This document shows, one piece after another, positions 23,908 to 44,202 of a stretch of DNA of 64,000 nucleotides. Every line of letters begins with the position of its first letter. The first letter of the stretch is position 1. The translations under genes were made by a program, and so were the position numbers. The notes below the pieces were generated by a model, which saw only the letters and a list, made by a program, of their open reading frames with translations, was not told the DNA's origin and made no database searches. Source of the DNA: Candidatus Omnitrophota bacterium. Lineage in GTDB: Bacteria; CAIJMQ01. The DNA lies in the NCBI GenBank assembly GCA_018812925.1, contig JAHJCU010000004.1, forward strand, positions 101,621 to 165,620, read 5' to 3'.

Positions 23908-23917
23908 TAAGTTAACT

Positions 23918-25042: not shown

Positions 25043-25043
25043 A

Positions 25044-26258
25044 ATGGATAACTTCAAAAAAAAAGAATTAATGTTTCTAATTTTTATTTTCTGTTTTGCT
25101 TTTGCTTTAAGAGTTTCTTATTGTTTCTTTTTCAAAGAAAATATTCTTCATATTCAAACGCATATATTCGGCGATACTCAAGATTATATCCAGATTGCGA
25201 ATAATTTCCTTTCCGGAAAGGGGTTGATAAGCTCTCCTGACAGGATTGCATATCGCCCTCCTCTGTATCCTTTATTTCTCTCGGGGGTTTACTATCTGTT
25301 CGGAAACGGTTATTGGCCTATAAGGATAATTCAATCTATTTTAGATGCCTTGACCTGTGTAATGGTTTATTTTCTGGGGAGAATGGTATTAAATAAGCAA
25401 ACGGGAGAAATAGCTTCCTTTATTTGCGTCATCTATCCTTTCTTTATTTTTTTTACCGGTTTTGAACTGACAGAAACATTATTTATTTTCTTATTGTTGA
25501 CCACTATTTATCTCTTTCAGAGAACCAAAAAAAATCCAAACTGCAGAAATATGATTATTACCGGAATTTCACTTGGGATGTCGATACTTTGTCATCCCTC
25601 ACTTACTATGTTTGTTTTTGTTTTATTAATTACTTTAGCTATCTCTGCTCTTTGGAGAGGATGGGAAAACCGATTTAAAATTATTGGTATTGTCTTAACG
25701 GTAACTATTTTAACCATTTTACCGTGGTCAGTTAGAAATTTTTATCATTTTAAAAAGTTTGTTCCACTAACCACTATGTCGGGTAGAACTTTCTGGGAGG
25801 GCAACAATCCATATTCCTCAGGAGGACCTTGCCAATATTGGCCTGAAGAAATACAAAATCTTTCTGAAGTGGAATCAGATAAATATTTAACAAAGACTAC
25901 TATTAAAGTGATAAAGGAAGATCCAACTAGATTTTTAAAACTTCTAGTAATAAAATTCACCCGTTTCTGGAATGTGAAGCCAAATTACGAAGGTTTTTCT
26001 TCCCCCCTATATAATTTAATTAGTATTTTCTCCTATATTCCGATAATGGTTACATCAATCTGGGGAATGTTTCTTACAAAAAAAATCTGGAGAAGTTTCC
26101 TAATCTTTTATCTATTATTTATTTCTTTTACTTTTACTTCTATGATTTTTGTTGGGTCTATTCGCTATAGAACCCCTATCATGCCTTTCATGATTATCTT
26201 TTCTGCATATACTTTGAAATGGATATATAATAAGACCTTTTCATTAGCAAAAAAATGA
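25044..26258 (+). CDS. GT-C fold membrane glycosyltransferase (family 39/83, ArnT/PMT-like)
   Basis: Polytopic membrane protein with an early loop acidic motif; architecture typical of polyprenyl-phosphate-sugar dependent transferases. Confidence 0.5.
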   Translation: MDNFKKKELMFLIFIFCFAFALRVSYCFFFKENILHIQTHIFGDTQDYIQIANNFLSGKGLISSPDRIAYRPPLYPLFLSGVYYLFGNGYWPIRIIQSILDALTCVMVYFLGRMVLNKQTGEIASFICVIYPFFIFFTGFELTETLFIFLLLTTIYLFQRTKKNPNCRNMIITGISLGMSILCHPSLTMFVFVLLITLAISALWRGWENRFKIIGIVLTVTILTILPWSVRNFYHFKKFVPLTTMSGRTFWEGNNPYSSGGPCQYWPEEIQNLSEVESDKYLTKTTIKVIKEDPTRFLKLLVIKFTRFWNVKPNYEGFSSPLYNLISIFSYIPIMVTSIWGMFLTKKIWRSFLIFYLLFISFTFTSMIFVGSIRYRTPIMPFMIIFSAYTLKWIYNKTFSLAKK

Positions 26259-26944
26259 GACTATCCGTAATTATTCCAACCTTTAATGAACTTGGCACCA
26301 TAGAAGAAGTTATTAATAGGGTTCAACAAGTTTCAGCCCAGAAGGAAATTATAATCGTTGATGATGGTTCCACTGATGGTACAAAAAAGATTCTAAAAAG
26401 CTTTAATATGGATAATATTACGGTTATCTATCACAACCGCAATATGGGTAAAGGACAAGCAATAAGAACAGCATTGCCAGTAACTACGGGAGATATTATT
26501 ATTATTCAAGATGCAGACTTAGAATATAATCCTGAAGAATATCTTAAACTAATTGAACCAATAGAAAAAGGCAAAACAGAAGTTGTTTATGGTTCAAGGA
26601 TATTAGATGGAAAGTTTAAATCTGTATCTTTTCAAAATTTTATCTTTTATCTTGGTGGAAAAAGCTTATCCATGCTTACAAATTTTTTATACAGAGCTAA
26701 TATAACCGATGAGCCAACTTGCTATAAAGTTTTTAAATCAGATATTTTAAAATCATTAAATCTTAAATGCAAGGGCTTTGAGTTTTGTCCTGAAGTTACT
26801 GCAAAAATATTGAGGCAAGGAATAAAAATTCATGAGGTTCCTATATCCTGTAATCCCAGAACAATTAAGGAAGGCAAAAAAATAAGATTGAAGGATTGGT
26901 TCGTTGCTATTTGGATTTTAATAAAATACCGATTCAAGAAATAA
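26255..26944 (+). CDS. Glycosyltransferase family 2 (polyprenyl-phosphate sugar synthase-like, DPM1/ArnC type)
   Basis: LSVIIPTFNE and IIVDDGSTDGT motifs, DAD-like motif QDADLEY; start overlaps the previous gene. Confidence 0.8.
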   Translation: MRLSVIIPTFNELGTIEEVINRVQQVSAQKEIIIVDDGSTDGTKKILKSFNMDNITVIYHNRNMGKGQAIRTALPVTTGDIIIIQDADLEYNPEEYLKLIEPIEKGKTEVVYGSRILDGKFKSVSFQNFIFYLGGKSLSMLTNFLYRANITDEPTCYKVFKSDILKSLNLKCKGFEFCPEVTAKILRQGIKIHEVPISCNPRTIKEGKKIRLKDWFVAIWILIKYRFKK

Positions 26945-26964
26945 CCATTGCTGTTTACTTACAA

Positions 26965-28656
26965 ATGGTCAAGATAAATTATAAAACAATTCTTTTTTTA
27001 ATACTTATATTGTCTCTTTTTTTAAATAGCTGGGGAATTAAATGGGGTCTACCCTCAAAAGAAAGAATTGCCCTGCTTCCGAAATTCGAGGATGTAAGTG
27101 CTTTGCTTCAAGAGAAAGAAGTTTTAACCGATAAAAACACCAGTTTAGTGGGGCTTATATCTAACTATGAGACCCTTCCCAAAATTACAAGAAGATTCTT
27201 GCTATACACACATCATCCAGACGAAATGTTGACAATTATGGCAATTACGAGGATGAATCCTTCTAAGCTTGATTTTAATCCGCATTTTTTCCAATATGGT
27301 GGAGTTTTCATTTATCCAATAGCCGCTAGTTTTAAAATCGGCTCTATTCTCGGCTATTTAGATGTTTCCAAAGGGTTAGATTATTTTTTAGACCATCCAG
27401 ACCAGATAGCTCGTTTTTATATAGTTGGAAGGTGGATAGTTGTTTTTTCTTGTTTATTATCTATTCTGGCTATTTATTTTGTTGTCTCTGCTATTGGAAA
27501 TAAAACCAGTGCCCTATTAGCCGCATTAATACTGACTATTCTTCCCTCGACTGTAATCTGGGCACATACTTTTAAGCCTCATATGTATGGGGTTTTCTTT
27601 GCTTTGATAAGTTTTTATTTTGCATTCAAGATATTAAAAGAGAGGCAATTAAGCCATTATATTTGGTCAGGTATTTTCGCAGGACTTTCAGCAGGGGCAG
27701 TAATAAATTACGGAATAATAATATTCCCATCCTTGCTAGCTGCACTGCTTTATTCTATACAGCATAAAGAAAGAATATATATCAAAGGATTGCTGTTTTT
27801 AGGTATCGGATTTATTTTTGCTTTCTTTATACCCAATTATTATTATCTTTTTTCTTTTAAGGAAGCGTTGAATGAATTCAGAGTACTCTCCGGTATGTGG
27901 GAATTTTCCCCTACTCCTGCTGTGTGGTTTGATTATCTAATTATCATGAAAGAAGTTATAGGAGCTTCTTTATTTTTTCTTATGATGGGTGGATTTATCT
28001 ATTCCCTTTATAAATCAATATGGCATAGGGATAAAATTCACATATTGTTATCTACAACAGCTTGTCTTTATTTTTTTCTTATAGGGTCATTGACCAGTTT
28101 AAACACAGCAGATATTGGAAGAATAAGATTCGGACTACTTCTTATCTCTATTCTCGTAATAATGACCGCACTATTTATAGTTTCTTTTCTAAACAGAATT
28201 CGACATAGACATTTAAAAGTTGTTTTTACGGCTATTCTTCTTGGTATTTTTCTTTTGACGCTCAGTAAAACAATTCTCTATGATTTAAACTTTTTTTATG
28301 ATTCCACCTCTCGTTCTACTCGGATGTTAGCCGGCAAGTGGATAAATAAAAATATTCCAGAGGGAAGTTCTATTCAACTTTGGCATTCTCCTGCTCCTTT
28401 TAATTCGCCTCCATTGAAATTTGATAATTATCAAATAATAGTTGAACCATTAAAAAACGTAGAGTATATTATAAGTTCTTATCAGCCAGAGTGGGATAAT
28501 AATCAAAATGATTATATATTGTTAAAGAGTTTTGAACCTATAACTTCCATATTGGGTTTTAAGCTAATCAACCCTTTTTATTTTTCAAATCACCTAGTTT
28601 CTATTTTTATTCGAAAAGATTTATATCCTGAAATGATAAGAATTTTGGAAGATTAA
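26965..28656 (+). CDS. Large polytopic membrane protein, possibly a second GT-C type glycosyltransferase
   Basis: Many TM helices; HHPDE loop motif; ATG at 26965 preferred over the track start 26896, which overlaps the GT2 gene. Confidence 0.4.
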   Translation: MVKINYKTILFLILILSLFLNSWGIKWGLPSKERIALLPKFEDVSALLQEKEVLTDKNTSLVGLISNYETLPKITRRFLLYTHHPDEMLTIMAITRMNPSKLDFNPHFFQYGGVFIYPIAASFKIGSILGYLDVSKGLDYFLDHPDQIARFYIVGRWIVVFSCLLSILAIYFVVSAIGNKTSALLAALILTILPSTVIWAHTFKPHMYGVFFALISFYFAFKILKERQLSHYIWSGIFAGLSAGAVINYGIIIFPSLLAALLYSIQHKERIYIKGLLFLGIGFIFAFFIPNYYYLFSFKEALNEFRVLSGMWEFSPTPAVWFDYLIIMKEVIGASLFFLMMGGFIYSLYKSIWHRDKIHILLSTTACLYFFLIGSLTSLNTADIGRIRFGLLLISILVIMTALFIVSFLNRIRHRHLKVVFTAILLGIFLLTLSKTILYDLNFFYDSTSRSTRMLAGKWINKNIPEGSSIQLWHSPAPFNSPPLKFDNYQIIVEPLKNVEYIISSYQPEWDNNQNDYILLKSFEPITSILGFKLINPFYFSNHLVSIFIRKDLYPEMIRILED

Positions 28657-28671
28657 TTACAAAAAAGGGTG

Positions 28672-29943
28672 TTATTCAGTTAGTGTTGTCTCGTAGTATT
28701 TTCTCTTTCCGACCGTTATTAAGGTGTTTTTTGATTTCGATAAAGCGATTTCACTTTTATGGTCGGTTATTTTTTCGTTGTCTATATAGACTGCACCTTG
28801 TTCTACCAATCGTCTTGCGTCAGAATTGCTTGCTGTGGCTTTGATGGTTGTCAGGAGACTGCAAATCCAGATTTTTCCTTCTTTTAGTTGGGAAGGCGAT
28901 ATCTTTTTAACTTCCGGTTTTATATGTTTTATTCTATCGTCTAAACTTTTACCAGGCGTATGTTTTGCGTCGAATGTTGTTTTTGCTTCCTCCGCATGTT
29001 TTTTATTATATAAATCTTGGACTATTGTGCAGGCAAGTTTTTCTTTTATTTGCTTTGGATTTTCTTTTTTTAAAGAAATTTCTATATCTTTAATGTCTTC
29101 ACTTTTTAAGAATGTTAAAAGTTTAAAATATCTTAGAATAAGCTCGTCCGGTATCGACATGATTTTGCCGTATATATTTTCAGGCATTTCGGATACTCCT
29201 ACATAATTGCCTAAAGACTTGCTCATTTTTTGTTTTCCGTCTAGTCCTTCCAATATCGGCATGGTAATGACAACTTGGGGTTCTTGCCCATATTTTTTTT
29301 GAAGAGTTCGTCCCATTAAAAGGTTAAACTTTTGTTCTGTTGCGCCGATTTCCACATCTGCTTTAAGAACAACTGAATCGTATCCTTGAATTAACGGATA
29401 TATGAACTCGAGCATTCTTATGTCTTTGCCGTTTTCCATTCTTTTCTTAAATTCATTTCTCTGCAATGTTTGGGATACGGATTGAAAAGAAAATAATTGC
29501 ATTAATCCGTCAAACTTCATGTTTTCAAGCCAAGCTGAGTTGTAAACAACTTCTGTTTTCTGTTTATCCAAAATTTTAAAAACCTGCTCTTTATATGTGG
29601 TGGAATTTTTCTTTATTTCTTCTACGGATAATTTTGGCCGCGTGGTGTCTTTACCGGAAGGGTCGCCTATTCTTGCAGTAAAATCTCCTATGATGAATAT
29701 GACTATATGCCCCAAATCCTGAAACTGGCGCAATTTTCTTAAGACTACGGTATGACCAAGATGAATGTCGGGAGCAGACGGATCAGCGCCCCACTTTATC
29801 CTTAAAGGAGTTTTTGTCTTACTTGATTTTTCCAGTTTCCTCAGGAGTTCGTCTTCAGGAATAACTTCTTCTGTATTTTTTTTAATAGTTTCAAACTGTT
29901 TTTTAATATTCATATTTTCAAAGTTGTAAATTTTTACAATCAT
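28672..29943 (-). CDS. tyrS: Tyrosine--tRNA ligase
   Basis: HIGH-type motif (IHLGH), KMSKS motif, C-terminal S4-like domain. Confidence 0.9.
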   Translation of the reverse strand: MIVKIYNFENMNIKKQFETIKKNTEEVIPEDELLRKLEKSSKTKTPLRIKWGADPSAPDIHLGHTVVLRKLRQFQDLGHIVIFIIGDFTARIGDPSGKDTTRPKLSVEEIKKNSTTYKEQVFKILDKQKTEVVYNSAWLENMKFDGLMQLFSFQSVSQTLQRNEFKKRMENGKDIRMLEFIYPLIQGYDSVVLKADVEIGATEQKFNLLMGRTLQKKYGQEPQVVITMPILEGLDGKQKMSKSLGNYVGVSEMPENIYGKIMSIPDELILRYFKLLTFLKSEDIKDIEISLKKENPKQIKEKLACTIVQDLYNKKHAEEAKTTFDAKHTPGKSLDDRIKHIKPEVKKISPSQLKEGKIWICSLLTTIKATASNSDARRLVEQGAVYIDNEKITDHKSEIALSKSKNTLITVGKRKYYETTLTE

Positions 29944-29959
29944 CTTATATTTTATTTTT

Positions 29960-30247
29960 TCATTTTTCGTTTAATCTCTTAAATAGAAACTTTCCCGATT
30001 TAAATTTAACGACTTTTCGGGAAGAGATGCTTATCTTTTCTCCCGTTTTGGGATTTCTTGCAATTTTGGCTTCTCGCCAACTTATCTTGAAGACTCCGAA
30101 TTTTCTTAACTCCACCCTTTCTCCTCGCGTCATAGCTTCAGTAATATGTTCCAATGTTTCTTCTATTATTCTCTTCACTACTTGCTGACGCTCGCCTGTA
30201 GAATAGGAAATTTTCTTTACAAGGTCTTTTTTTGTAATAGTATTCAT
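29960..30247 (-). CDS. HU/IHF family DNA-binding protein
   Basis: 95 aa; RNPKTGE arm motif. Confidence 0.8.
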   Translation of the reverse strand: MNTITKKDLVKKISYSTGERQQVVKRIIEETLEHITEAMTRGERVELRKFGVFKISWREAKIARNPKTGEKISISSRKVVKFKSGKFLFKRLNEK

Positions 30248-30249
30248 TT

Positions 30250-30846
30250 TTATGTCTTCATTGCTTTGGTGGGCTCTTCTTTTTCTTTATCCTCTTCTTC
30301 AAGTGGTTCTTCGGGTTGCAAGGTGTCTAAAAATTCCTGCCATTTAAAACCGATAAATTTATTATATGTTTTTACATACGCTTCGTCAGCTTTAAAAATT
30401 ATTTTATCTTCTTCGCGCAGATTATATATACTATTGGTTGCTGGTGCGATATATAGGGAAATAATTATGCAACTCATAAGATTTAAGCCCAATATTATTC
30501 CGCAAATTGCGCCGCCTATTTTATCAATAAGTGTGAAAAAATAAATCGTTTTTTCTTTAGTTTTTGAACGAATTTTTGAGAAAAATAATTGTTTTATTGA
30601 CCATAAAGGTAAAAGCGAAAATGTGAATATTGCCCAGAACGCTATAAGAAGAGCATATTGTTCATCCGGAAAAATATATTTGAAAATATAGGGCGCCAAT
30701 GATTGGAAAAGAGTAAAACTCATTCCTGCGCTGAATAAGAAATTTATAAGGTTTACAAACTCGTTTAATAACCCCTCGCTTATTCCTATGTAAATTCTAT
30801 ATGCGATTACGACAACAATCGAAAGATTAAGGATATAGGGAATCAT
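30250..30846 (-). CDS. CvpA family membrane protein with an acidic C-terminal tail
   Basis: Four predicted TM helices, CvpA-like N-terminus; neighbours purine genes as cvpA often does. Confidence 0.5.
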   Translation of the reverse strand: MIPYILNLSIVVVIAYRIYIGISEGLLNEFVNLINFLFSAGMSFTLFQSLAPYIFKYIFPDEQYALLIAFWAIFTFSLLPLWSIKQLFFSKIRSKTKEKTIYFFTLIDKIGGAICGIILGLNLMSCIIISLYIAPATNSIYNLREEDKIIFKADEAYVKTYNKFIGFKWQEFLDTLQPEEPLEEEDKEKEEPTKAMKT

Positions 30847-32255
30847 TTTAAAACTCCTTCAATTTCATCCACACTAGTAAGCCCTTGCCTGATCTTGGTT
30901 AACCCGTCTTCAAGAAGCGTTATCATTCCCTGTTTTTTTGCTTGGGTGAAAATTTCTTGTTCGGACGCCTTATTACTTATTAGTTCTTTGATTGTTTTGT
31001 CAATTACCAAAATTTCGAATAGGCCTGTGCGTTTCCTATACCCCGTATTTGTGCAATAATTGCAGCCCTTTGTTTTATAAACTTGTTCTCCTGCTTTTAA
31101 CTGTATGTTTTCCTGACCAAAAAATTTATCGGAAGGCAGAACGTAAGATATCTTACATTGCGGACATAAAAGACGGACTAATCTCTGACTAATTACCCCT
31201 GAAAGAGAAGACGATATAAGATAACGTTCAAAGCCCATTTCAAAAAGTCGCATAATTGTGCTTATCGAGTCTTTGGTGTGCAAAGTCGAAAAAACCAAAT
31301 GTCCGGTTAAAGAAGCTTCAATGGCTACTTTTGCAGTTTCGACATCTCTTATTTCTCCCACCATTATTATATCCGGGTCCTGTCGCAGTATACTTCTTAA
31401 ACAGTTGGCAAATGTTACCCCTGCACGCACATTTATTGGAATTTGAGTTGTGTTTACAATTTTATATTCAATAGGGTCTTCTATACTTATAATGTTTTTA
31501 CCCAGATTATTTACCTTATTTAAGATAGCATAAAGAGTAGTTGTTTTTCCACATCCTGTAGGTCCAACTATTAGCACAATGCCATCATTACGAAATACCA
31601 AAGAACGGAATTTGTCCTCTGCTTCAGGGAGAACGCCAAGATTTGAAATGTCGACTAATCCTTCACTAGGGTCAAGAATTCTCATTACCATGGTCTCGCC
31701 ATATTGAGATGCGGATACAGAGACTCTAAAATCTATTTTTTTATCTTTTATAGTCGAGGAGAAACTGCCGTCCTGGAAAGAACGTTTTTGCGCTATGTCA
31801 AGGTTACTTAAAACTTTGATAGCGGAAACAATCGCTTTGCACAATTCTACGGGGAAAGTCCTATATTCATAAAGAAATCCGTCTATCCTGAAACGAACGG
31901 TTAGTTTCTCTTTATCCGGGTCCAAATGAATATCCGTTGCTCTATAAGCAACAGCATCTTGAAAAATTTTATTTACAGTTTTTAAAACTTGTCTGTCATC
32001 ATTGATTGTTTTGGAAGATGAAAAATATTTTGACTTGGCATTTTGGGAACCTTTTTGTTGAGAAGTAAAATAAAAAATAGAAGGTAAATAATAGTACAAA
32101 AGTAATGCCAATGGACCCAAGAAAAAAAATAAGCTGTTACAGAGCCTTACATTTCTTCCTTTTTTCCTGGCATCTATGTTGACCCATGCCATCAAAAAAA
32201 ACCAGGCATAGGAAAATGCCAAAAGTGTAATACTAAAAGCTATTTTTCCTGACAA
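30843..32255 (-). CDS. GspE/PilB-family secretion ATPase with an N-terminal membrane anchor
   Basis: Walker A GPTGCGKTT, Asp box, His box, tetracysteine CPQC...CNYC; N-terminal ~60 aa hydrophobic; TTG start with AAGGGAG SD. Confidence 0.75.
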   Translation of the reverse strand: MSGKIAFSITLLAFSYAWFFLMAWVNIDARKKGRNVRLCNSLFFFLGPLALLLYYYLPSIFYFTSQQKGSQNAKSKYFSSSKTINDDRQVLKTVNKIFQDAVAYRATDIHLDPDKEKLTVRFRIDGFLYEYRTFPVELCKAIVSAIKVLSNLDIAQKRSFQDGSFSSTIKDKKIDFRVSVSASQYGETMVMRILDPSEGLVDISNLGVLPEAEDKFRSLVFRNDGIVLIVGPTGCGKTTTLYAILNKVNNLGKNIISIEDPIEYKIVNTTQIPINVRAGVTFANCLRSILRQDPDIIMVGEIRDVETAKVAIEASLTGHLVFSTLHTKDSISTIMRLFEMGFERYLISSSLSGVISQRLVRLLCPQCKISYVLPSDKFFGQENIQLKAGEQVYKTKGCNYCTNTGYRKRTGLFEILVIDKTIKELISNKASEQEIFTQAKKQGMITLLEDGLTKIRQGLTSVDEIEGVLK

Positions 32256-32308
32256 TATTAAAACTCCCTTTTAATTATAGCAAAAGCCTTTAATAATTTT
32301 TAATTGTT

Positions 32309-33094
32309 TTAAAGATTTTCTTTTACGTACTTTACTGCATTTTCAAAAATCGCAAGCCCCACTCCCTTCTCAGGTAATGTTTCTCTTGTATGTTTAGGAT
32401 GGTTTTCTCTATAGATGTAAGCTTCGGGATGCGGCATAAGTCCAAAGATACGGCCGGAAGGGTCGCATATACCCGCAATATTGTCCAAGGAACCGTTTGG
32501 ATTGTGCGGATATTTGGATGCTTTCTCGCCATTAGGATTTGCATATCGAAGAACAATAAGATTTTCTTTTTTCAATTTTGCAAGTGTTTTAGGCTCTGCA
32601 TAAAATTTCCCCTCTCCGTGTCGAATTGGTAGATATAGATTTTTAATGCCTTTTGTAAATACACAAGGAGATTTTTCCACTTTTAAATTTATCCACCTGT
32701 CTTCAAATTTTCCGGAATCGTTAAAAGCTAGGGTCACTTTTTGTGTCCAATAATCGTCGTTTATTCCCGGCAAAAATCCGAGTTTTACCATTATTTGAAA
32801 TCCGTTGCATATTCCGATAATAAGCTTTTTATCGGAAATAAATTTTAAAAGATTTTTCTTTAGTTTATATTTAAACTTAACCGCATGAATTTTTCCAGCC
32901 GCAATATCATCCCCAAAAGAAAATCCTCCCGGAAACGCTAAAATATCGTAACTGTCTAATTTTTTAGAACCTTCTATTAATTCGTTGGTATGCGCTTTTT
33001 CTACGCAAGCTCCTGCCAATTCAAACGCTTTTTTCGTCTCGTTATCACAGTTTATACCATGTCCGTATAAGACCAAAACTTTAACTTTTCTCAT
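32309..33094 (-). CDS. purQ: Phosphoribosylformylglycinamidine synthase, glutaminase subunit PurQ
   Basis: Class I glutamine amidotransferase nucleophile GICNGFQ; 261 aa. Confidence 0.85.
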   Translation of the reverse strand: MRKVKVLVLYGHGINCDNETKKAFELAGACVEKAHTNELIEGSKKLDSYDILAFPGGFSFGDDIAAGKIHAVKFKYKLKKNLLKFISDKKLIIGICNGFQIMVKLGFLPGINDDYWTQKVTLAFNDSGKFEDRWINLKVEKSPCVFTKGIKNLYLPIRHGEGKFYAEPKTLAKLKKENLIVLRYANPNGEKASKYPHNPNGSLDNIAGICDPSGRIFGLMPHPEAYIYRENHPKHTRETLPEKGVGLAIFENAVKYVKENL

Positions 33095-36000
33095 GGTTTA
33101 ATTGTATTAAAAGGTTCTTTCCAAACTCTTTTTAAGACCTCAATATTTTCTTTAAGTATTATTTGCCCTTTCAACCCCTTTAGCGTAAGGATTTTCTTCC
33201 CCACAACTTTCCCCACCAATTTAATATCGTTCCCTTTCATTATCCTTCTGAATTCTTTTTCATATTTTCGGGGCACAGTTACAATAAATCTTGACGCTGA
33301 CTCCGAATAAAGAAGTTTATCTGTATTGTCGACATTTTCTCTTGGAACAAAATCCAGATTTATTTCCAGTCCATATCCGCCGGCAAAGGAAATTTGAGCT
33401 AATGCAACCCCAAGTCCTCCTTTATAGCAACCATGCGCAGAAGCCACGAGTCCGCTTTCGATAACCTCACTTAAAGCTTTATAAAGTTTAATCGCTTTTT
33501 TTGTTCTTACAATGGGAACGTTTAATCCGATTTCGCCAAACATTTCGTAATATTCCGAACCACCACATTCGTCATAAGTTTTCCCCAAAACAAACACCAA
33601 ATCCCCCGGATGTTTTACATCCATCGTTACGCATTTTTTGTAATTGTCTATTATGCCTGCGCTGGAAAACATCACAGTCGGTAATGACGAAATCCTGTGT
33701 TCTTTGCCGTGTGTATCAGGTATAGTTGTATCCATTGACATTGAATCTTTGCCGGATATACAGGGGGTGCCATAGGCAAGAGTATAATCATAAAGCGCTT
33801 GATTGGCTCTTACGAGTTGCGCCATCTTGTATTTTGCGTCGGGGTTGTCTTTTCCAGACAGTGTAGATGGCCAGCAAAAATTGTCGTTTAAGACAATTTT
33901 CTTAAGGTTTCCGCCGATTGCTACAATTCTCCTTATGGCTTCATCAAAAGCATTTGCTGTCATGTGATATGTATCAATTGGGCTATATTTTGGGTTTATA
34001 CCCGATGCAATTGCAATTGCTTTCTTGGATTCAAAATCAGGTCTTATGACTACCGCGTCGGAATGGACATCGCTCTCTTCTCCCACTAAATGTTTTATTA
34101 CACTTGTTGCCTGAACCTCATGATCAAATTGGCGGACTATATATTCCTTGCTTGAGATATTTGGCCTTGCAAGCATTTTTTTAAAAAATTTAGCATGATT
34201 TTTTATTTTGGGTATTTCCGGTTCGCTTAAACCTCTTGACTGGGGTGTAAGCCACTGTGCTTCAAGCCTAAGTTGCGGAACTCCTTCATGAACAAATTCC
34301 ATATCCATAAAAGAAACATGTTTGTTGTTGTATAAACAATGAAATTTCCCGGAGGAGTTAAATGTTCCAATAGCCGTAGCTTCTACTTCGTGTCTTTTTG
34401 CAAGTGCCATAAATTCTTTTATTTTTTTAGGCGACACTGACAATATCATTCTTTCTTGTGATTCAGAAACAAGAATTTGCCAAGGGTCAAGCCCTTTATA
34501 TTTTATAGGGACTTTATCCAAATGAAGTTCAAATCCTTTTGCAACGTCTTTTGGTTTGCTCCTGCCAAAATTGTATCCCATTTCCCCTACACTAGAAGAA
34601 AGACCCCCGGCTCCGCAATCTTGTATGCAAGTATAGAGGTTTTTATCCCTTGCTTCACTTAAAAAATCATGCATTTTTTTCTGCGTATAAGGGTCTCCCA
34701 TTTGCACATGTCCCAAGGTAATATGTTTTCCACCTTCCATTGACGATTCTGTTGCCCCGTGTATACCGTCAATGCCAACTTTGCCGCCACACATTATTAT
34801 TAAATCACCAGGGTCTGTCTGTTTTTCTGAGCCGCCTTCTCCGTTTATTATTTTTGGAATAAGTCCCGCCGCCAGCACATATAGCGCAGGTTTCCCAAGA
34901 TATCCGTTGTCGAAAAAAACGATTCCATAGGGAGTGGGAACTCCATGTTTATTCCCTCCGTCTTGTACCCCTTGTCTTACACCCTCCAAAAGTCTCTTGG
35001 GATGAATTTCAGGTTTTAAATCGCCATCATAGTTAGGCTCTCCTGTACAGAATCCGTATGTTCCATATATAAGTTTGCAACCCTTTCCTGTTCCCATTGG
35101 GTCGCGATACACTCCCACTATGCCCGTAAGTGCTCCTCCATAGGGATATTTTGCAGAAGGCGAATTATGCGTTTCGCATTTGAAAGCGAAAAGATAATTA
35201 TTATTGAATTCTATGACACCCGAATTATCCCATAGCGTAGAAACCATCCATTTCAGCTTTTTCTTTAGTTTTTCCGTTGAGGCACGAATATATGTTTTAA
35301 ACAAACTATTTATATATTTTGTTTTCCCTCCTTCTGTATATTCAACATACGCATTGAATATCTTGTGTTTACAGTGTTCCGACCATGTTTGAGCCAAAAC
35401 TTCTAATTCGGCATCTGTAGGGTTATTGTCCAATCCTATATGTTTACGGTTTTTGATCACATCCGCTCTTAAAAAATATTCTTTGATTTTTTGCATCTCT
35501 TCAATGTTTAAGGCGAGATTTTTTTGTTTACTCAAACTCAATAATTCTTGAACAGAACCCAATTCCAGCTTTGATATTTTAGGTTTGTGCGCTATAAGCA
35601 CTTTGGGAATTTCAGGCATATAGCCTTTTTCTAAATACGTTTTTTTGTCTATAACGTGCCATGACTCAACGGATTCATACGCGAAGACACCTTTTGCAAT
35701 TTTTTCAACGTCTGGTTTATTTAAACAACCTTTTATGAGGAAATATTTTGATGTGTAGACAGCTTCGCCTTTATTGAATTTCGTATGCAGGATGTCTTGA
35801 ATAGCTTCTTGCGCTCTTTCTCCGGTATTGTCCTTTACTCCGGGCAGATTTTTCACATGGATAAGCCAATCCCAAGAAAATTTGCCAATTAGAGACCTAT
35901 CAACCGAAAATTCCTGAATTAATGGATCAGAAAACAGCTCCTGTGCAAGGATATTCAGGTCTTTTTTAGAGAATTTTTTGTCAATAGAATATAAGGTGAC

Positions 36001-36108
36001 TTCTTTAACGAATTTAACCTGAAACCCCAAATCTAATATCTCTCTTTGTTTATGTTCCGCAAAAGCATTTTTTAATCTGGTTTTGAAGGTGACTTCTATA
36101 GTGTGCAT
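33091..36108 (-). CDS. purL: Phosphoribosylformylglycinamidine synthase PurL with a fused PurS-like N-terminal domain
   Basis: ETHNSPSA motif, linker SEHCKHKIF, PurS-like first ~80 aa; 1005 aa with no glutaminase domain. Confidence 0.85.
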   Translation of the reverse strand: MHTIEVTFKTRLKNAFAEHKQREILDLGFQVKFVKEVTLYSIDKKFSKKDLNILAQELFSDPLIQEFSVDRSLIGKFSWDWLIHVKNLPGVKDNTGERAQEAIQDILHTKFNKGEAVYTSKYFLIKGCLNKPDVEKIAKGVFAYESVESWHVIDKKTYLEKGYMPEIPKVLIAHKPKISKLELGSVQELLSLSKQKNLALNIEEMQKIKEYFLRADVIKNRKHIGLDNNPTDAELEVLAQTWSEHCKHKIFNAYVEYTEGGKTKYINSLFKTYIRASTEKLKKKLKWMVSTLWDNSGVIEFNNNYLFAFKCETHNSPSAKYPYGGALTGIVGVYRDPMGTGKGCKLIYGTYGFCTGEPNYDGDLKPEIHPKRLLEGVRQGVQDGGNKHGVPTPYGIVFFDNGYLGKPALYVLAAGLIPKIINGEGGSEKQTDPGDLIIMCGGKVGIDGIHGATESSMEGGKHITLGHVQMGDPYTQKKMHDFLSEARDKNLYTCIQDCGAGGLSSSVGEMGYNFGRSKPKDVAKGFELHLDKVPIKYKGLDPWQILVSESQERMILSVSPKKIKEFMALAKRHEVEATAIGTFNSSGKFHCLYNNKHVSFMDMEFVHEGVPQLRLEAQWLTPQSRGLSEPEIPKIKNHAKFFKKMLARPNISSKEYIVRQFDHEVQATSVIKHLVGEESDVHSDAVVIRPDFESKKAIAIASGINPKYSPIDTYHMTANAFDEAIRRIVAIGGNLKKIVLNDNFCWPSTLSGKDNPDAKYKMAQLVRANQALYDYTLAYGTPCISGKDSMSMDTTIPDTHGKEHRISSLPTVMFSSAGIIDNYKKCVTMDVKHPGDLVFVLGKTYDECGGSEYYEMFGEIGLNVPIVRTKKAIKLYKALSEVIESGLVASAHGCYKGGLGVALAQISFAGGYGLEINLDFVPRENVDNTDKLLYSESASRFIVTVPRKYEKEFRRIMKGNDIKLVGKVVGKKILTLKGLKGQIILKENIEVLKRVWKEPFNTIKP

Positions 36109-36183
36109 AGTATTTTACATCCCATATGATATACCGGATTTTAACGGACAAGTGCGATTTTTTATTTTGTAAATTGAAAAGAT

Positions 36184-36213
36184 ATTATATCCTTAAATTA
36201 TGACTAAAAGCAA
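36184..36213 (-). promoter_or_regulatory. Candidate sigma-70 promoter for purL (TTGCTT, 18-nt spacer, TATAAT on the minus strand)
   Basis: Hexamers read on the reverse complement about 75 nt upstream of the purL ATG. Confidence 0.3.
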
Positions 36214-36376
36214 CGTAACAGGATTGCATTTTCATGATTTTTATGATAATCTGTCGGGACTCTCCCGCATAAAGTATGTGGGTTGAAAATGGTTAATTCC
36301 GGTTAGAGGTTCACTTCGTAGATAGTGCTAAAATCAACGAGATTCGTCTCTGCTCGGATTGTTAAATGACAAGAAA

Positions 36377-37567
36377 ATGAAAAACGAAATTTTGGCAACT
36401 CTTGAATCCTTAGGGAAAGAAAAGGGGTTGAATAAGGAAGTTCTTATAGAAGCAGTAAAAGACGCCGTGCTTTCTGCCGCAAAAAAGAAATTTCGCGGAG
36501 CAAAAGATGTTTCCGTAATCTTTCAACAGGATACGGGAGATATTAAAGTTGTTATCGATGGTCAAGAAAAACCATTGGGAGATTTGGGAAGAATTGCTGC
36601 ACAAAGCGCTAAACATATAATGGTCAAAGAAATTCGCCAACATGTAAGCGAAAAGGTTTATGCTACCTATCAATCTCGCATTGGCCAAATCCTAACAGGC
36701 AGGGTGGAAGCAATGGACGGTCGTGACTTTATTATTGAATTGGGAGAAATCGACGGGTTATTGCCCAGGCAAGAATGTCTTCCACAAGACAATTTTAGGA
36801 TAGGAGACAATGTTAAAGCATACCTATTCGAAATAAAAAGAGAGATAAATTTTGCCCCTTTGCTTTTTTCACGCACTCATCCACGCTTTTTGGATCAATT
36901 ATTTAGAATAGAAGTGCCGGAGATTAAAGAGGGAATAATTGAGATAAAAGCGATAGTGAGAGAAGCTGGCTACAGAGCAAAGATTGCCGTAGAAAGCCAT
37001 ATGAAAAATGTAGACCCGATTGGCACTTGCATTGGGTTAAAAGGTGAAAGAGTCAGGGCTATAACTCAAGAACTCAACGGCGAAAAAATAGATATAATCC
37101 CTTATGACAAAGATATGAAAATATTTATTGCCCGAGCACTGGCTCCGGCAAAGGTTTTGGATATTCAAATCTTCAGCGAAGATAAAAGAGCCCGAATTAT
37201 AGTAGAAGACGACCAACTTTCTTTGGCTATAGGAAAAAAAGGTCAAAATGTAAGATTGGCCGCAAAACTAACAGGGTGGAAATTGGATATAAGGAGCAAG
37301 ACACAAACAGAGAAAGAAAAGAAGTTTACTCCCAAGGGAATAGAAAAGGAACTCACTCAACTTCCCGGCATAGGGATAAAAATGGCTAATTCTTTGGGTA
37401 AAGCCGGATTAATCACCATAGAAGATATAGCCAAATCCACACCAGAAAATTTATTGAATATTCCTGGACTTGGAGAAGCAAAAGCAGTCCAGATAATAAA
37501 CAAAGCTAAAGAGATTATTGGTAATAATCCTCCCGCTAAAGATAAGAAAGGGGAGAAAACCCAATGA
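36377..37567 (+). CDS. nusA: Transcription termination/antitermination factor NusA
   Basis: S1 and KH domain motifs (DPIGTCIGLKGERV); ATG at 36377 matches the canonical N-terminus MKNEILA. Confidence 0.9.
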   Translation: MKNEILATLESLGKEKGLNKEVLIEAVKDAVLSAAKKKFRGAKDVSVIFQQDTGDIKVVIDGQEKPLGDLGRIAAQSAKHIMVKEIRQHVSEKVYATYQSRIGQILTGRVEAMDGRDFIIELGEIDGLLPRQECLPQDNFRIGDNVKAYLFEIKREINFAPLLFSRTHPRFLDQLFRIEVPEIKEGIIEIKAIVREAGYRAKIAVESHMKNVDPIGTCIGLKGERVRAITQELNGEKIDIIPYDKDMKIFIARALAPAKVLDIQIFSEDKRARIIVEDDQLSLAIGKKGQNVRLAAKLTGWKLDIRSKTQTEKEKKFTPKGIEKELTQLPGIGIKMANSLGKAGLITIEDIAKSTPENLLNIPGLGEAKAVQIINKAKEIIGNNPPAKDKKGEKTQ

Positions 37568-39516
37568 AAAGACCTGTTTATGAACTTGCCAAAGAACTCG
37601 GTTTACCTGCAAAGAAGCTCTTAGAAGAAATAAAAGGACTTGGCATTGTCGCAAAAAGCCACATGAGCACATTAAGCAAGGAAGAGTATGAACTCGTAAA
37701 AAATCTTTTCCTTGAAGAGAAGAAAAAATCCTCCAGTTCCCCTGCTTCAAAAACAAGCGAAAAACAGATTTTTAAAATTCCGGAAGGAATAACCGTAGGT
37801 AATTTTGCAGAAAAAATAGGATCAAGTCCGACTGAATTGATACAAAAATTAATTAAAATCGGCATTATGGCTAATCTTAATCAGTCCTTGGGAAAATCAG
37901 AAATAGAAATTATAGGTAAAGAATTAGGATTAGATATAGAGATTACCAAAGCTGAACCCCATTCTGAGAATAAGGAAAAACACAGAAAGAGACATTTGGG
38001 GAAAGGCAAGAAAATACGGCGCCCCCCAGTAGTTGTTGTTATGGGTCATGTTGACCACGGAAAAACAACGTTATTGGATACCATAAGCAAAAAAAATATA
38101 GCAGATAAAGAAAAAGGCAAAATCACACAACATATCGGTGCTTCGACCGTCGAGTTGGAAGACGGAAATAAAATAATTTTCCTTGATACTCCGGGTCATG
38201 AAGCTTTTACCAGCTTAAGAGCCCGCGGCTCTCAAATAACCGATATAGCCGTTTTAGTGGTTGCCGCAGATGACGGGGTTCAACCCCAAACAAAAGAAGC
38301 CATTGACCATGCAAAAGCCGCCCAAATACCGATAGTTGTGGCTATAAATAAAATAGACAAAAAAACCGTAAATCCGGAAAAAGTGAAGATGCAACTGCAA
38401 TCATTGGGACTTATTCCTGACGAAATGGGAGGGACAACTCAATTTGTAAACGTTTCCGCCTTAAATAATTTGGGGATTGACAAACTATTGGAAGCAATAC
38501 TTTTAGAATACGAGATGTTAGAAACTTTTGCCAATATAGAAGGCCCTGCTAAAGGATATGTCATAGAAAACAGAATGGATAAAGGCAGAGGACCTGTAGG
38601 GACTTTATTGATAGAATCCGGAATTCTTAAAATCGGTAATTGTTTTGCATCCGGTAATACCTTCGGCAAAGTAAGGGCAATGATTGATGACCATGGTCGA
38701 AATCTAACCGAAGCACTGCCTTCTTCAATAGTAGAATTATCCGGTTTTTCTTCACTTCCGATATCCGGAGATACTTTCCAAGTGGTAAAAAGTGAAAAAG
38801 AAGCCAGAGAAATTGTTAGCAAGAAAACCAATCAACAACAAAACGCTAAAACAAAAGAAAAAGCTGTTTTCACGCTTGAAGGCTTACAGGAACAGTTGGG
38901 CAAGCAAAAGATAGTCGAATTGCGATGTATCGTAAAGAGTGATGTTCAAGGTTCTCATGAAGCGTTGAAAAAAGTTTTGGAACGATTGAGCAATGAAGAA
39001 ATGAATTTAAATATAATTAATCAAGGGGTAGGCAGTATAAACAGTTCCGATGTGCTTCTTGCCGAGGCTTCCAAGGCTATTATCATAGGTTTTAATCTGG
39101 GAGTTCAAGGCTCTGTGCAAAAAATGGCAATAGAAAAAGGAGTAGAAATACGCCTTTATGATATTATTTACGATGCGATAGACGATATCAAGAAAGCTAT
39201 GGAGGGAATGCTTAGCCCTAAGATTGAAGAAATTCTCATAGGCAAAGCAGAAATAAAACAGGTTTTCTCCAATTCAAAAGGCAAAGTTGCTGCAGGAGCG
39301 CAGGTAACGGAAGGTAGAATCGTAGTCAAAGGCGCAAAAATACGCATTTTAAGAGATAGTGAAGAGCTTTATAAAGGCAGATTAAATTCTCTGCGCAGAT
39401 TTAAAGACAGCGTTGCAGAAGTTAAGCAGGGATATGAATGCGGATTAAGCATTGCCGATTTCAAAGATTTTCAGCCGGGCGATATCATTGAAGTATACAT
39501 GTTACAAAAAAAATAA
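37564..39516 (+). CDS. infB: Translation initiation factor IF-2
   Basis: GTPase motifs GHVDHGKTT, DTPGH, NKID; start overlaps the nusA stop. Confidence 0.9.
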   Translation: MKRPVYELAKELGLPAKKLLEEIKGLGIVAKSHMSTLSKEEYELVKNLFLEEKKKSSSSPASKTSEKQIFKIPEGITVGNFAEKIGSSPTELIQKLIKIGIMANLNQSLGKSEIEIIGKELGLDIEITKAEPHSENKEKHRKRHLGKGKKIRRPPVVVVMGHVDHGKTTLLDTISKKNIADKEKGKITQHIGASTVELEDGNKIIFLDTPGHEAFTSLRARGSQITDIAVLVVAADDGVQPQTKEAIDHAKAAQIPIVVAINKIDKKTVNPEKVKMQLQSLGLIPDEMGGTTQFVNVSALNNLGIDKLLEAILLEYEMLETFANIEGPAKGYVIENRMDKGRGPVGTLLIESGILKIGNCFASGNTFGKVRAMIDDHGRNLTEALPSSIVELSGFSSLPISGDTFQVVKSEKEAREIVSKKTNQQQNAKTKEKAVFTLEGLQEQLGKQKIVELRCIVKSDVQGSHEALKKVLERLSNEEMNLNIINQGVGSINSSDVLLAEASKAIIIGFNLGVQGSVQKMAIEKGVEIRLYDIIYDAIDDIKKAMEGMLSPKIEEILIGKAEIKQVFSNSKGKVAAGAQVTEGRIVVKGAKIRILRDSEELYKGRLNSLRRFKDSVAEVKQGYECGLSIADFKDFQPGDIIEVYMLQKK

Positions 39517-39664
39517 TCACATCGGAAATCAAACATCAATTTGTTTAGTTATTAAACCCTAATTAAAAAATTTATAGAGAAGGAATTGTCTTATATCGTA
39601 GAAATAGTAAAATCTTATCCAAAGGTGGGAATAATAGATTATTCCACTGAGGAAATATATAAAA

Positions 39665-40018
39665 ATGAAAACCAGACGCTCCAGCAGAATATCAGAAGTT
39701 ATAAGAAGAGAAATTTCCAGTATGATTCAACAAAAGGAAATAAGAGACCCGAGGATAGGCTTTGTAACAATCGTTGCTGTGGATGTATCCAACGATTTGA
39801 AAGAGGTTGAAGTATACCTAACTCATTATGGCAGCCAATCCGATAGGGACAAAAGCCTTGCAGGTTTAGAAAGCGCAGCCGGTTTTATTGAAGGGGAAGT
39901 AGGTAGAAGACTTCACTTGCGTCTTGTCCCCAAGATAAAGTTCTCATACGATGAAAAAATAGGAAAGACAATGAATGTTCTCAAAATTATAGATTCTTTT
40001 CATGAAGATGAGAAATAA
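39665..40018 (+). CDS. rbfA: Ribosome-binding factor A
   Basis: 117 aa; R-rich N-terminus and DPRIGFVTI motif. Confidence 0.85.
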   Translation: MKTRRSSRISEVIRREISSMIQQKEIRDPRIGFVTIVAVDVSNDLKEVEVYLTHYGSQSDRDKSLAGLESAAGFIEGEVGRRLHLRLVPKIKFSYDEKIGKTMNVLKIIDSFHEDEK

Positions 40019-41162
40019 AGAAACGAACATTATTGAAAAAGGCGGTAATTTCTATTGGTATTTCTGGCATTCAGGAAATAAAGACCGAAAGCAAGCATTA
40101 GACAATATATTGTTTTTCTTTCTGAAGTGTTTGGTACCTATTTATTATGCCATGTTTTTCTTGCATCGCTGTATAAAGAGAAAAAACGCGCCCCAAAAAG
40201 CTCCTGTCATAAGTGTAGGCAATTTAACATTAGGCGGAACCGGAAAGACTCCTTGTGTGGAATTTCTTATTAAAAAATTTTTGGAGAAAAAAAGGAGAGT
40301 CGGATTGCTGACCAAAGGATATGCAAGAGAAAATAAAGACAGTAAAAAAATTGTTTTTTCCCAAACCAAAGAAGATATTGCTGTCAAAGACATCGGAGAT
40401 GAACCATATCTTTTGTCAAAACACTTTCCGTCAATTCCCATTTTTATTTCCCGTCATAGAGCAAAAAGTTTTTTAGACGCCGAAAAAAAACGAGAATGCG
40501 ACGTATTTATAATGGACGACGGCTTCCAATATCCGCATATTGACAAGGACTTAGAAATTCTTCTTATAAACAAAACAAACCCTTTCGGCAACGGTTTTGT
40601 TTTCCCTGCAGGTTTCCTAAGAGAACCAATTAACTCCATTAAAAGAGCAGACTTAATAATTTTGACTCATGCCGATGAGTGTGTTATATCATCTGATGAA
40701 TGCGAAAATTCAAAAAACGTGTATTCTGTGCTATCCCAAAAAGCTCCAAGAATTCCGATTTTAGAAAGCATTCATGAACCGCTATATTTCCAAGATTATA
40801 TCTCAGATAAAAAATATCAAGCCGAAGAACTTCTAAATAAACGGTTTTTATCGCTTGCTTCTTTAGCTGACCCGCTCTCTTTTGAAGAATCTCTTAAAAA
40901 ATTAAGGCTTAATCCCGTTAAAAAAGTGCGCTTCCCCGACCATTACCCTTATAAATCCGAAAATATAGAATGGGTGTCTTCTCTTGCCACAAAAGAAAAT
41001 ATTGATTTTATTATAACCACTGAAAAGGATTGCGTTAGATTTCCAAAAGGGCCTAAATTTTCAATCCCTGTTTTATATTTAATTATAAATTTTAAAATAA
41101 TTAAATCAGAAGAAGTTATTGATGATATGATTAACAAAGTTTTGGAGAAATATAAAATATGA
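40002..41162 (+). CDS. lpxK: Tetraacyldisaccharide 4'-kinase
   Basis: P-loop VISVGNLTLGGTGKTP. Confidence 0.8.
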   Translation: MKMRNKETNIIEKGGNFYWYFWHSGNKDRKQALDNILFFFLKCLVPIYYAMFFLHRCIKRKNAPQKAPVISVGNLTLGGTGKTPCVEFLIKKFLEKKRRVGLLTKGYARENKDSKKIVFSQTKEDIAVKDIGDEPYLLSKHFPSIPIFISRHRAKSFLDAEKKRECDVFIMDDGFQYPHIDKDLEILLINKTNPFGNGFVFPAGFLREPINSIKRADLIILTHADECVISSDECENSKNVYSVLSQKAPRIPILESIHEPLYFQDYISDKKYQAEELLNKRFLSLASLADPLSFEESLKKLRLNPVKKVRFPDHYPYKSENIEWVSSLATKENIDFIITTEKDCVRFPKGPKFSIPVLYLIINFKIIKSEEVIDDMINKVLEKYKI

Positions 41163-41788
41163 AACTTAAAAAAGGGATATTGGTTACTTTCGAAGGAGGA
41201 GAGGGTTGCGGCAAATCCACTCATGTCAATCTGCTTAAAGATTATCTTGAAGATAAAGGATTTAAAGTTCTTGTGATTAGAGAACCCGGCGGCACAAAAA
41301 CAGGAGAAAAATTACGCAAGATACTGCTTGAAGGAAAGAGTAAAATATCTTCTTTAACCGAACTATTCCTTTTCCTTGCCTCCCGCAGAGAACTTATTAT
41401 TAAAGTTATTGAACCTGCTTTAAAGCAAAATAAAATCATAATCTGCGACCGTTTCATAGATTCTACAGTTGCTTATCAAGGATATGCCAGAGGCATAAAT
41501 ATCGAACTTGTTTCGAAATTGAATGATTTGGTGGTTGGCAAAAAAGCATTGCCTGATATTACGTTTATTCTCGACACTAATAAACATTTGGGATTTAAGT
41601 CGAAAGGCGAAGATAGGATAGAGGTAGAAGATAAATCTTTCCATAAAAGAGTACGAGAAGGATACCTTGAAATTGCTCAAAAAGCTTCAAGTAGAGTCAA
41701 AGTAATTAATGTAGATGATAAAATTGTAGATATTCAGAAGAAAATCAGAATAATAGTGAATGAATCCCTAACGAAATTTAAGGTTTAA
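41159..41788 (+). CDS. tmk: Thymidylate kinase
   Basis: P-loop FEGGEGCGKST; DRF motif. Confidence 0.9.
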   Translation: MKLKKGILVTFEGGEGCGKSTHVNLLKDYLEDKGFKVLVIREPGGTKTGEKLRKILLEGKSKISSLTELFLFLASRRELIIKVIEPALKQNKIIICDRFIDSTVAYQGYARGINIELVSKLNDLVVGKKALPDITFILDTNKHLGFKSKGEDRIEVEDKSFHKRVREGYLEIAQKASSRVKVINVDDKIVDIQKKIRIIVNESLTKFKV

Positions 41789-41831
41789 GATAAGAGATTT
41801 TTAAATTTTTAACGAAAACCGAGTGTAAAAA

Positions 41832-42956
41832 ATGTCTTTCAACGATATTGTTAATCAGGAAATAGCCAAAAAAGTCTTGAAGTCCGCAATAAAAGAGAAC
41901 AAGGTTCATCATTCTTATCTTTTCTTCGGACCTGAAGGCTGCGGGAAAAAAGATACTGCTTTGGAGTTTATAAAAGTCTTGAATTGTCTTGACAAAAAAA
42001 ACGATGAAGCCTGCGACAGTTGCTCTTCTTGCAAGAAAAGCATCAAAAATGTCCATCCCGACGTGATGTGGGTATCTGCGTCCGGAGCCAAACAAGTAAT
42101 CGGGATAAATGCAATAAGACAATTAGAACATTTTACTCAACTCAAATCTCTTGAAGTAAAATATAAGATTGCCCTGATAGAAAGACCGGAAAAATTAACA
42201 AAAGAAGCGGGAAATTGTTTTTTGAAAACACTGGAAGAACCGCCGAGGAATGTTATTATAATTTTATTAACAGCTTTCCCGGATAAGATTCTGCCCACCA
42301 TTGTATCCCGTTGTCAAAAGATTAAATTTCTTGCCCTAAATCCTAAGGAAGGTATAGAGATATTAAAGAAGAAATTTAATCTGGAAGAAAATCAAGCTCA
42401 CATGTTATATTTTGTTTGTTCCGGTAAGACAAAATGGATACAGTTATGGATAGAAGCGGCTCTTTGGAACTTAAGAGACGAAATTTTTGATGTTTTCATA
42501 AATATATTCTCAAAAGAAAAACGAGATTATACTGCGCCTTTAAAGCTGGCTGATTCTATGATGGAAATGGTGTCAAATTTTACTGATAAGGTTAAAAAAG
42601 AAAAACAGGATAGCATAAATGAATTTAAGGAAAATTTATCTTCTTCGCAAATAAAAAATATTAAAGCTTTTAAGCAAGCGGAGACGGAAGAATTAAAAAA
42701 AGAGTTGATAAAGATAATTTTTTCCGTTATAAAAAGTTTTTATGCGGATATTTTTTCTATAAGTTGCGAAACAGGATTTATAATAAATCTAGACAAGGAA
42801 ATTTCCCTTAAGCGGAAAACCGTAAATTTTTCGCATTCGTATTTGAATAATGCAATAAAGGAGATTGAAAATAGCAACACCCTTTTGGATTTAGGGGCAA
42901 ACTTACAACTGATTTTTCAGGTTTTATGTATCAATTTGTTTTGTGGCGAAAAATAA
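41832..42956 (+). CDS. holB: DNA polymerase III subunit delta-prime
   Basis: AAA+ motif FFGPEGCGKKD, zinc-module cysteines, SRC motif. Confidence 0.8.
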   Translation: MSFNDIVNQEIAKKVLKSAIKENKVHHSYLFFGPEGCGKKDTALEFIKVLNCLDKKNDEACDSCSSCKKSIKNVHPDVMWVSASGAKQVIGINAIRQLEHFTQLKSLEVKYKIALIERPEKLTKEAGNCFLKTLEEPPRNVIIILLTAFPDKILPTIVSRCQKIKFLALNPKEGIEILKKKFNLEENQAHMLYFVCSGKTKWIQLWIEAALWNLRDEIFDVFINIFSKEKRDYTAPLKLADSMMEMVSNFTDKVKKEKQDSINEFKENLSSSQIKNIKAFKQAETEELKKELIKIIFSVIKSFYADIFSISCETGFIINLDKEISLKRKTVNFSHSYLNNAIKEIENSNTLLDLGANLQLIFQVLCINLFCGEK

Positions 42957-43040
42957 GATGTTAATTTTTAGTTTTTAGTTTTTTTTCGCAGGATACTATA
43001 TAATTGAGATAATTGAGCTTAATAAAAACGGAGTCAGAAA

Positions 43041-43736: not shown

Positions 43737-43783
43737 GATTATATCTGTCAAAAACTCTAAATTTCTATAAAAGGGGTATTATT

Positions 43784-44161: not shown

Positions 44162-44202
44162 CTCCCCTATTTTTTAAATTTTATAACTCTACGAATGTTT
44201 TT

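Follow-up and report, generated by a model that had tools for sequence, protein, structure and literature searches.

A PurS-PurS-PurL fusion protein encoded next to a separate PurQ in Candidatus Omnitrophota, a probable two-subunit FGAM synthetase

A purSL-purQ gene pair in Candidatus Omnitrophota

Formylglycinamidine ribonucleotide (FGAM) synthetase catalyses step 4 of de novo purine synthesis. We analysed a stretch of 64,000 nucleotides (hereafter the window, whose numbering is used throughout) from a Candidatus Omnitrophota bacterium (GenBank assembly GCA_018812925.1, contig JAHJCU010000004.1, positions 101,621 to 165,620 of the forward strand), in which two adjacent genes, purSL and purQ, very probably encode this enzyme, also called formylglycinamide ribonucleotide (FGAR) amidotransferase (EC 6.3.5.3), as two subunits: a PurS-PurS-linker-PurL fusion and a separate PurQ. 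A preliminary description of this DNA, made from the letters alone, had proposed a PurL with a PurS-like N-terminal domain and no glutaminase domain, followed by purQ as the next gene with a 4-bp overlap. The features of the locus, with amino acids (aa) counted from the first residue of each protein, are as follows.

33091..36108, minus strand: purSL (fused purL) open reading frame (ORF), 1005 aa, ATG start, N-terminus MHTIEVTFK
35881..36108, minus strand: PurS-like repeat 1, aa 1-76 (Pfam PurS at aa 3-70; profile and predicted model)
35629..35874, minus strand: PurS-like repeat 2, aa 79-160 (profile positions 82-152 against 2yx5; HHalign; predicted model)
35353..35628, minus strand: linker, aa 161-252, with the C-terminal end WSEHCKHKIF containing His245 (Pfam FGAR-AT_linker at aa 191-249, E 7e-17)
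33094..35352, minus strand: FGAM synthetase core, aa 253-1005, with duplicated AIRS/AIRS_C (PurM-like) halves and ETHNSPS at 312-318
33091-33093, minus strand: stop codon of purSL, from the sequence
33091..33094, minus strand: ATGA overlap of the purSL stop and the purQ start, read from the sequence
32309..33094, minus strand: purQ ORF, glutaminase subunit, 261 aa, complete (GATase_5, TIGR01737)
36109..36358, no strand: intergenic leader common to purSL and the divergent nusA, with no recognisable riboswitch

On the coding strand the junction of the two genes reads ...AAA CCA TGA GAA AAG..., so that the ATG of purQ shares 4 bp (ATGA) with the TGA of purSL, and both the ORF coordinates and this sequence bear out the overlap that had been described. 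Such an overlap suggests translational coupling, which would help the equimolar synthesis of PurSL and PurQ. The exact 1005-aa protein was found with the same neighbours on 10 contigs, three of which represent different sequencing runs; the gene pair is therefore no assembly artefact and the purSL-purQ arrangement is real.

The N-terminal extension as a tandem of PurS modules

Scans of the whole protein with Pfam and NCBIfam (E<=0.01) left its first ~190 aa without any assignment. We then considered an alignment of 23 N-domains taken from full-length homologues. Pfam PurS matches 22 of these 23 domains (best E 8.4e-14), and the profile derived from the alignment matched six different solved PurS proteins among the PDB sequences, through both of its halves: positions 3-70 match the PurS of T. 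maritima (3d54_B/1vq3), B. subtilis, M. thermautotrophicus and T. thermophilus, and positions 82-152 match the M. jannaschii PurS 2yx5 (E 1e-3). The only PDB match to a protein other than PurS was weak and due to chance. When the two halves were compared with each other by HHalign, repeat 1 and repeat 2 aligned with a probability of 98.7% and an E-value of 2.5e-16.

The AlphaFold model of aa 1-190 has a mean predicted local distance difference test (pLDDT) score of 92.1 and shows two successive strand-helix-strand-helix-strand modules; repeat 1 has a pLDDT >90 and repeat 2 follows the same order of secondary structures. Using Foldseek against the PDB, the best matches of this model were the N-domain of Salmonella PurL (1t3t, 6jta; probability 1.00 over ~170 columns) and also human PFAS, followed by single PurS chains that each cover one half, with template modelling (TM) scores (TMt) of 0.54-0.75; the probabilities of these large-PurL N-domain and PurS matches ranged from 0.87 to 1.00. 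Because of the profile matches, the alignment of the two halves, the predicted fold and the Foldseek ranking, we read the N-terminal extension of ~160 aa as a covalent PurS-PurS tandem. The PurS homology in the preliminary description thus holds, both for this protein and for its relatives, whereas the single copy described there does not, as HHalign, the profile and the model all show two tandem repeats.

A search of a representative protein library with the N-domain recovered 519 clusters at 50% identity. Neither a PurS of ~80 aa nor a large PurL of ~1300 aa was present among the top 150 matches, which consist exclusively of PurSL proteins and fragments. Matches of 150-300 aa were considered as free-standing PurS-PurS proteins and rejected, as they extend into the linker and are fragments of PurSL.

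Linker and synthetase core

Pfam located, on the 1005-aa protein, an FGAR-AT_linker domain (191-249), an AIRS domain (294-416), two AIRS_C domains and an FGAR-AT_PurM_N-like domain (653-809), and neither Pfam nor NCBIfam found a glutaminase (GATase) domain. The hidden Markov model profiles hence delimit a PurS-like N-terminus, a linker and a synthetase core, and the absence of the glutaminase domain, proposed from the bare sequence, is confirmed. Alignments with small-PurL models start at aa 226-228, whereas those with large-PurL models and with 1t3t start at aa ~169-187; residues 169-227 align to large PurL only (1t3t from its residue 156, PRK05297 from profile position 167). These differing starts indicate that aa ~161-227 form a linker like that of large PurL, which is missing from small PurL.

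By contrast, the synthetase core is nearer in sequence to small PurL than to large PurL. The small-PurL model TIGR01736 aligns to aa 228-1001 with 463.4 bits (1.3e-138), the alignment ending at position 715 of 718, as compared with 273 bits for the large-PurL model PRK05297 and an E-value of 7e-38 for 1t3t; the closest PDB sequence match of the core is 3viu (1.4e-62).

The full-length AlphaFold model (pLDDT 88.3, predicted TM score 0.87) superposes on Salmonella and human large PurL with TM scores (TMq) of 0.80-0.83 over ~1070 alignment columns, and on small PurL with TMq of 0.48-0.62, the lower values being explained by the lack of the N-domain and linker in small PurL. The predicted domains are thus arranged in space as in a large PurL without its glutaminase domain.

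The characteristic motifs of the core, His245 in SEHCKHK (SEHCKHKIF at aa 243-251), Glu312-Thr-His314-Asn-Ser-Pro (ETHNSPS), SESQERM, DNFCWP and SGKDSMS, are invariant or nearly so among 45 homologues, with His245 and His314 strictly invariant. The two histidine motifs (SEHC..K and ETHN.PS) align with those of T. thermophilus and T. maritima PurL. By its domains and motifs the 1005-aa protein is classified as a probable FGAM synthetase. The SEHCKHKIF motif had been given as the mark of the large-PurL linker; a linker of that type is indeed recognised at aa ~169-227, although SEHCKHK itself is no signature of it, since WSEHC is also found at the aligned position of small PurL in Thermus and Thermotoga (WSEHCAYK in T. 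thermophilus and WSEHCGYS in T. maritima).

PurQ and the conservation of the gene pair

The product of purQ matches Pfam GATase_5 over the entire profile (positions 1-260 of 260, 1e-85), scores above the equivalog cutoff of TIGR01737 (197.5 against 177.8 bits) and begins at position 1-2 of standalone PurQ models. With 261 aa it is a long form that aligns over its whole length, C-terminal tail included, with the Salmonella large-PurL glutaminase domain (E 1e-30), and matches the 213-aa PurQ of T. maritima more weakly (E 6e-27). Its GICNGFQ (Cys96) and MPHPEA (His222 and Glu224) motifs align with GVCNGCQ and MPHPEA of the Salmonella domain, and on this sequence basis the protein is a class I amidotransferase with a predicted Cys-His-Glu triad. 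The catalytic roles of these three residues, as those of the histidine motifs of the core, are presumed from what is known of the family and transferred by means of the alignments.

We collected 80 related loci, each with its flanking sequence to a maximum of 10 kb on either side. In 72 of the 80, purQ lies directly downstream of purSL on the same strand, with a spacing that varies from an overlap to a gap of more than 100 bp. Of the eight other loci, at least four stop at a contig edge. Two loci from metagenome-assembled genomes (MAGs) of Deltaproteobacteria and Desulfonema (L058 and L067) carry no purQ in the 7.5 kb and 1.3 kb, respectively, that are available downstream, and the pairing of purSL with purQ is therefore not universal.

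No ORF resembling a solo PurS was detected in the flanks of these 80 loci, where real PurS fragments spiked as a positive control were recovered with E-values of 1e-4 and 5e-5. Within the window, the two repeat profiles and two real PurS sequences were compared with every one of the 938 six-frame segments that reach 30 aa and matched the fused gene only, with one dismissed exception: a 23-residue match of T. maritima PurS (E 0.005) to a 51-aa antisense segment (56948..57100), which is short and lies opposite a pfkA-like gene. A Pfam scan of the 57 window ORFs of 70-135 aa identified RbfA, HU, an acylphosphatase and an RRM protein and no PurS. Apart from this pair, the window contains housekeeping genes, and neither further pur genes nor a second purL. 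The combination of a standalone purS with an N-terminus of another origin, named in the preliminary description as the finding that would speak against a fusion, was thus not encountered in the 64 kb, and the N-terminus aligns to PurS.

A predicted two-subunit enzyme and alternative explanations

In the enzyme that we propose, the two tandem PurS-like modules of a single chain would stand in for the free PurS dimer of the PurS2-PurL-PurQ complex, and the large-PurL-like linker would join them to the small-PurL-like core. PurQ, produced from the overlapping downstream ORF, would hydrolyse glutamine by means of Cys96-His222-Glu224, and the released ammonia would be channelled to the PurL active site, which contains the His245 and His314 motifs, where ATP-activated FGAR would be converted to FGAM. 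The PurS-PurS domain would be placed like the N-domain of large PurL or the PurS dimer, at the interface of synthetase and glutaminase, where it may take part in PurQ docking and in the ammonia channel. The predicted complex contains one PurSL and one PurQ and would have no need of free PurS.

Several observations weigh against this proposal. When the N-terminus of the window protein is scanned alone, Pfam PurS gives 21.2-22.2 bits for a gathering score of 22.2; with so borderline a score, it is the family profile and the predicted fold that carry the assignment to PurS. Nor does the protein reach any of the curated NCBIfam cutoffs for PurL equivalogs (463.4 against 525.75 bits for TIGR01736 and 445.7 against 648 for PRK01213). 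These low scores can be attributed to models built on small PurL and to the divergence of the fused subfamily, as the alignment is still full-length; the NCBIfam scan brought up no model specific to PurSL. Our data cover 64 kb of the genome, so that a purS gene may lie elsewhere in it, and both forms are present in M. marisnigri. Literature searches returned no biochemical or structural work on this protein or on any PurSL form.

The borderline Pfam score and the 64-kb coverage would also suit another origin of the N-terminal 160 aa, as a ferredoxin-like or ACT-like regulatory module unrelated to PurS, in which case free PurS would still be required. ACT-type proteins do figure low in the Foldseek list, with probabilities of at most 0.16 and a root mean square deviation of ~19 A, values far from the 0.87-1.00 obtained for large-PurL N-domains and PurS. 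The family profile matches PurS alone in the PDB, apart from the chance match mentioned above, 22 of the 23 relatives are recognised as PurS, and the N-domain superposes together with the rest of the full-length model on large PurL. Moreover, no purS adjoins the operon in the 80 related genomes, as opposed to the halobacterial gene clusters that keep purS with purQ (PMC3261824). We hence regard a regulatory module of this kind as very improbable. Even less credit can be given to the protein being a paralogue of the aminoimidazole ribonucleotide (AIR) synthase superfamily recruited to a reaction other than FGAM synthesis, which its scores under all curated PurL cutoffs and the name 'AIR synthase-related protein' of some NCBI homologue records could suggest: PurL equivalog models match it over their full length (1e-138), the PurL-specific motifs SEHC.HK, ETHN.PS, SESQERM and SGKDSMS are invariant, it shares an operon with a bona fide PurQ and the window holds no other purL. 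Given the conserved motifs and the purQ operon, such a paralogue is unlikely.

The 4-bp overlap and the end-to-end alignment of PurQ with the Salmonella glutaminase domain might also be expected from a single-chain large purL split by a frameshift or an assembly error, purQ then being the detached glutaminase domain of a pseudogene. However, the identical pair recurs on 10 contigs, including the three from different sequencing runs, the split is kept in 72 of the 80 related genomes with a spacing that ranges from an overlap to a gap of >100 bp, PurQ starts at position 1-2 of standalone models and exceeds the TIGR01737 cutoff, and the long protein reaches position 715 of the 718 of the small-PurL model. 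In addition, the ~50 positions of PRK05297 that join both domains (985-1035) have no counterpart in either protein, and the core is nearer to small than to large PurL (463 against 273 bits). A frameshift or assembly error in a large purL is thus effectively refuted, and a two-subunit FGAM synthetase made of a PurSL fusion and a PurQ remains by far the most probable product of the gene pair.

Relation to known systems, distribution and naming

The PurSL architecture has already been described and is widespread. Brown et al. 2011 (Biol Direct 6:63, PMC3261824) reported the same form in six methanogens under the name mdPurL. Three features that mark a PurSL or mdPurL are found in the window: an N-terminal extension of ~160-200 aa homologous to PurS, no glutaminase domain on the same chain and a separate purQ. 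Five of the six archaea with mdPurL lack purS, M. marisnigri being the sole species that has a purS candidate too, and there a full-length purQ adjoins the mdPurL gene (PMC3261824). The mdPurL was described in methanogenic archaea whereas the window copy is bacterial. For the extension of mdPurL only low sequence identity to PurS was reported (PMC3261824), where the profile and the predicted fold resolve two PurS repeats in the window protein.

Compared with the PurS2-PurL-PurQ complex (Thermotoga maritima, 3D54; Bacillus subtilis), the window system likewise has a core that resembles small PurL, a separate glutaminase and two PurS units per PurL, but both units form one chain with PurL, to which they are connected by a linker of ~65 residues that is absent from small PurL, and its PurQ is of the long form (261 aa, against 213 aa in T. 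maritima). With the single-chain large PurL (Salmonella StPurL, 1T3T; human PFAS, 9N9W) it shares the order N-domain-linker-synthetase, the predicted global fold and the linker at aa 169-227. It differs in having neither the glutaminase domain nor the connector of ~50 residues and in an N-domain that still matches the PurS Pfam family, and at 1005 aa it is not a large PurL (~1300 aa with a C-terminal glutaminase).

The 120 best matches from a search of 5.8 billion proteins, which come from Omnitrophica, Patescibacteria/Parcubacteria and DPANN archaea, all have the same architecture, except a few that are incomplete. A scan of GTDB species confirmed 567 relatives; the best 80 of these 567 all span aa ~1-1003 and include proteins of the cultured Desulfosarcina alkanivorans, D. 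widdelii, D. variabilis, Desulfatibacillum alkenivorans and Desulfatitalea alkaliphila. The PurSL form is present in hundreds of lineages, among them cultured Desulfobacterales, Omnitrophica, Patescibacteria and DPANN archaea. The closest named relative belongs to a Candidatus Omnitrophica MAG (73% identity) and the closest genome locus shows 78% identity.

A homologue with 48% identity over the full length (P0120) bears the Joint Genome Institute name 'phosphoribosylformylglycinamidine synthase subunit PurSL'. Public names conflict within the subfamily, homologues P0023, P0110 and P0119 being among the examples: 'subunit PurS', 'AIR synthase-related protein', 'phosphoribosylformylglycinamidine synthase' and 'subunit PurSL' all occur. 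In KEGG, K23269 is purL, and K23270 presumably stands for purSL. We suggest that such genes be annotated as purSL plus purQ and that a missing purS call in these genomes not be taken for a gap in the purine pathway. Metabolic reconstruction in Omnitrophota, Patescibacteria, DPANN archaea and Desulfobacterales would benefit from a model dedicated to PurSL. The importance of the finding beyond correct annotation is small.

The preliminary description had called this architecture intermediate between the three-subunit and the single-chain enzymes. The term is accurate for the domain composition alone and does not extend to phylogeny; the core scores as small PurL (463 bits) rather than as large PurL (273 bits). 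PurSL might conceivably be a surviving intermediate on the way from PurS2-PurL-PurQ to the single-chain large PurL, a rather doubtful reading that draws on PurS repeats still recognisable in sequence, on the large-PurL-like linker and on a 261-aa PurQ that aligns end-to-end with the large-PurL glutaminase domain. The order of events would then possibly, and as tentatively, have been a tandem duplication of purS, a fusion to purL through a newly acquired linker and the capture of a long-form purQ. If this were true, PurSL would be a natural system in which to study the effect of tethering the PurS dimer on complex assembly and ammonia channelling. A structure of PurSL would reveal the way in which the enzyme accommodates a PurS dimer that is tethered covalently.

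Leader and gene neighbourhood

The leader shared by purSL and nusA (36109..36358) contains no riboswitch according to Rfam, either at the gathering threshold or at E<=1, and the promoter sites that were found by scanning it are no more numerous than in shuffled sequence. Over the whole window (1..64000), the Rfam scan at gathering threshold gave no match, and hence no tRNA, rRNA or riboswitch. Two genes downstream of purQ and on the same strand lies a gene for a CvpA / Colicin_V membrane protein (PF02674; 30250..30846, minus strand). The E. coli cvpA gene is co-transcribed with purF, and a loose purine-linked neighbourhood may therefore exist here as well. Between purQ and cvpA, and overlapping the latter by 4 bp, is a gene for a GspE/PilB-type T2SSE ATPase of 470 aa (30843..32255, minus strand), which has an unusual hydrophobic N-terminal extension of ~60 residues.

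Three further genes of the window, all on the minus strand, were noted: one for an RRM_1 RNA-binding protein of 126 aa with a Gly/Arg-rich C-terminal tail (54142..54522), one for a low-complexity Lys/Glu-rich protein of 134 aa (44203..44607), directly upstream of a peptide deformylase-like gene with a 1-bp overlap, and one for an acylphosphatase of 93 aa (PF00708, 1.8e-26; 11530..11811), located between a transaldolase-like gene and trpB.

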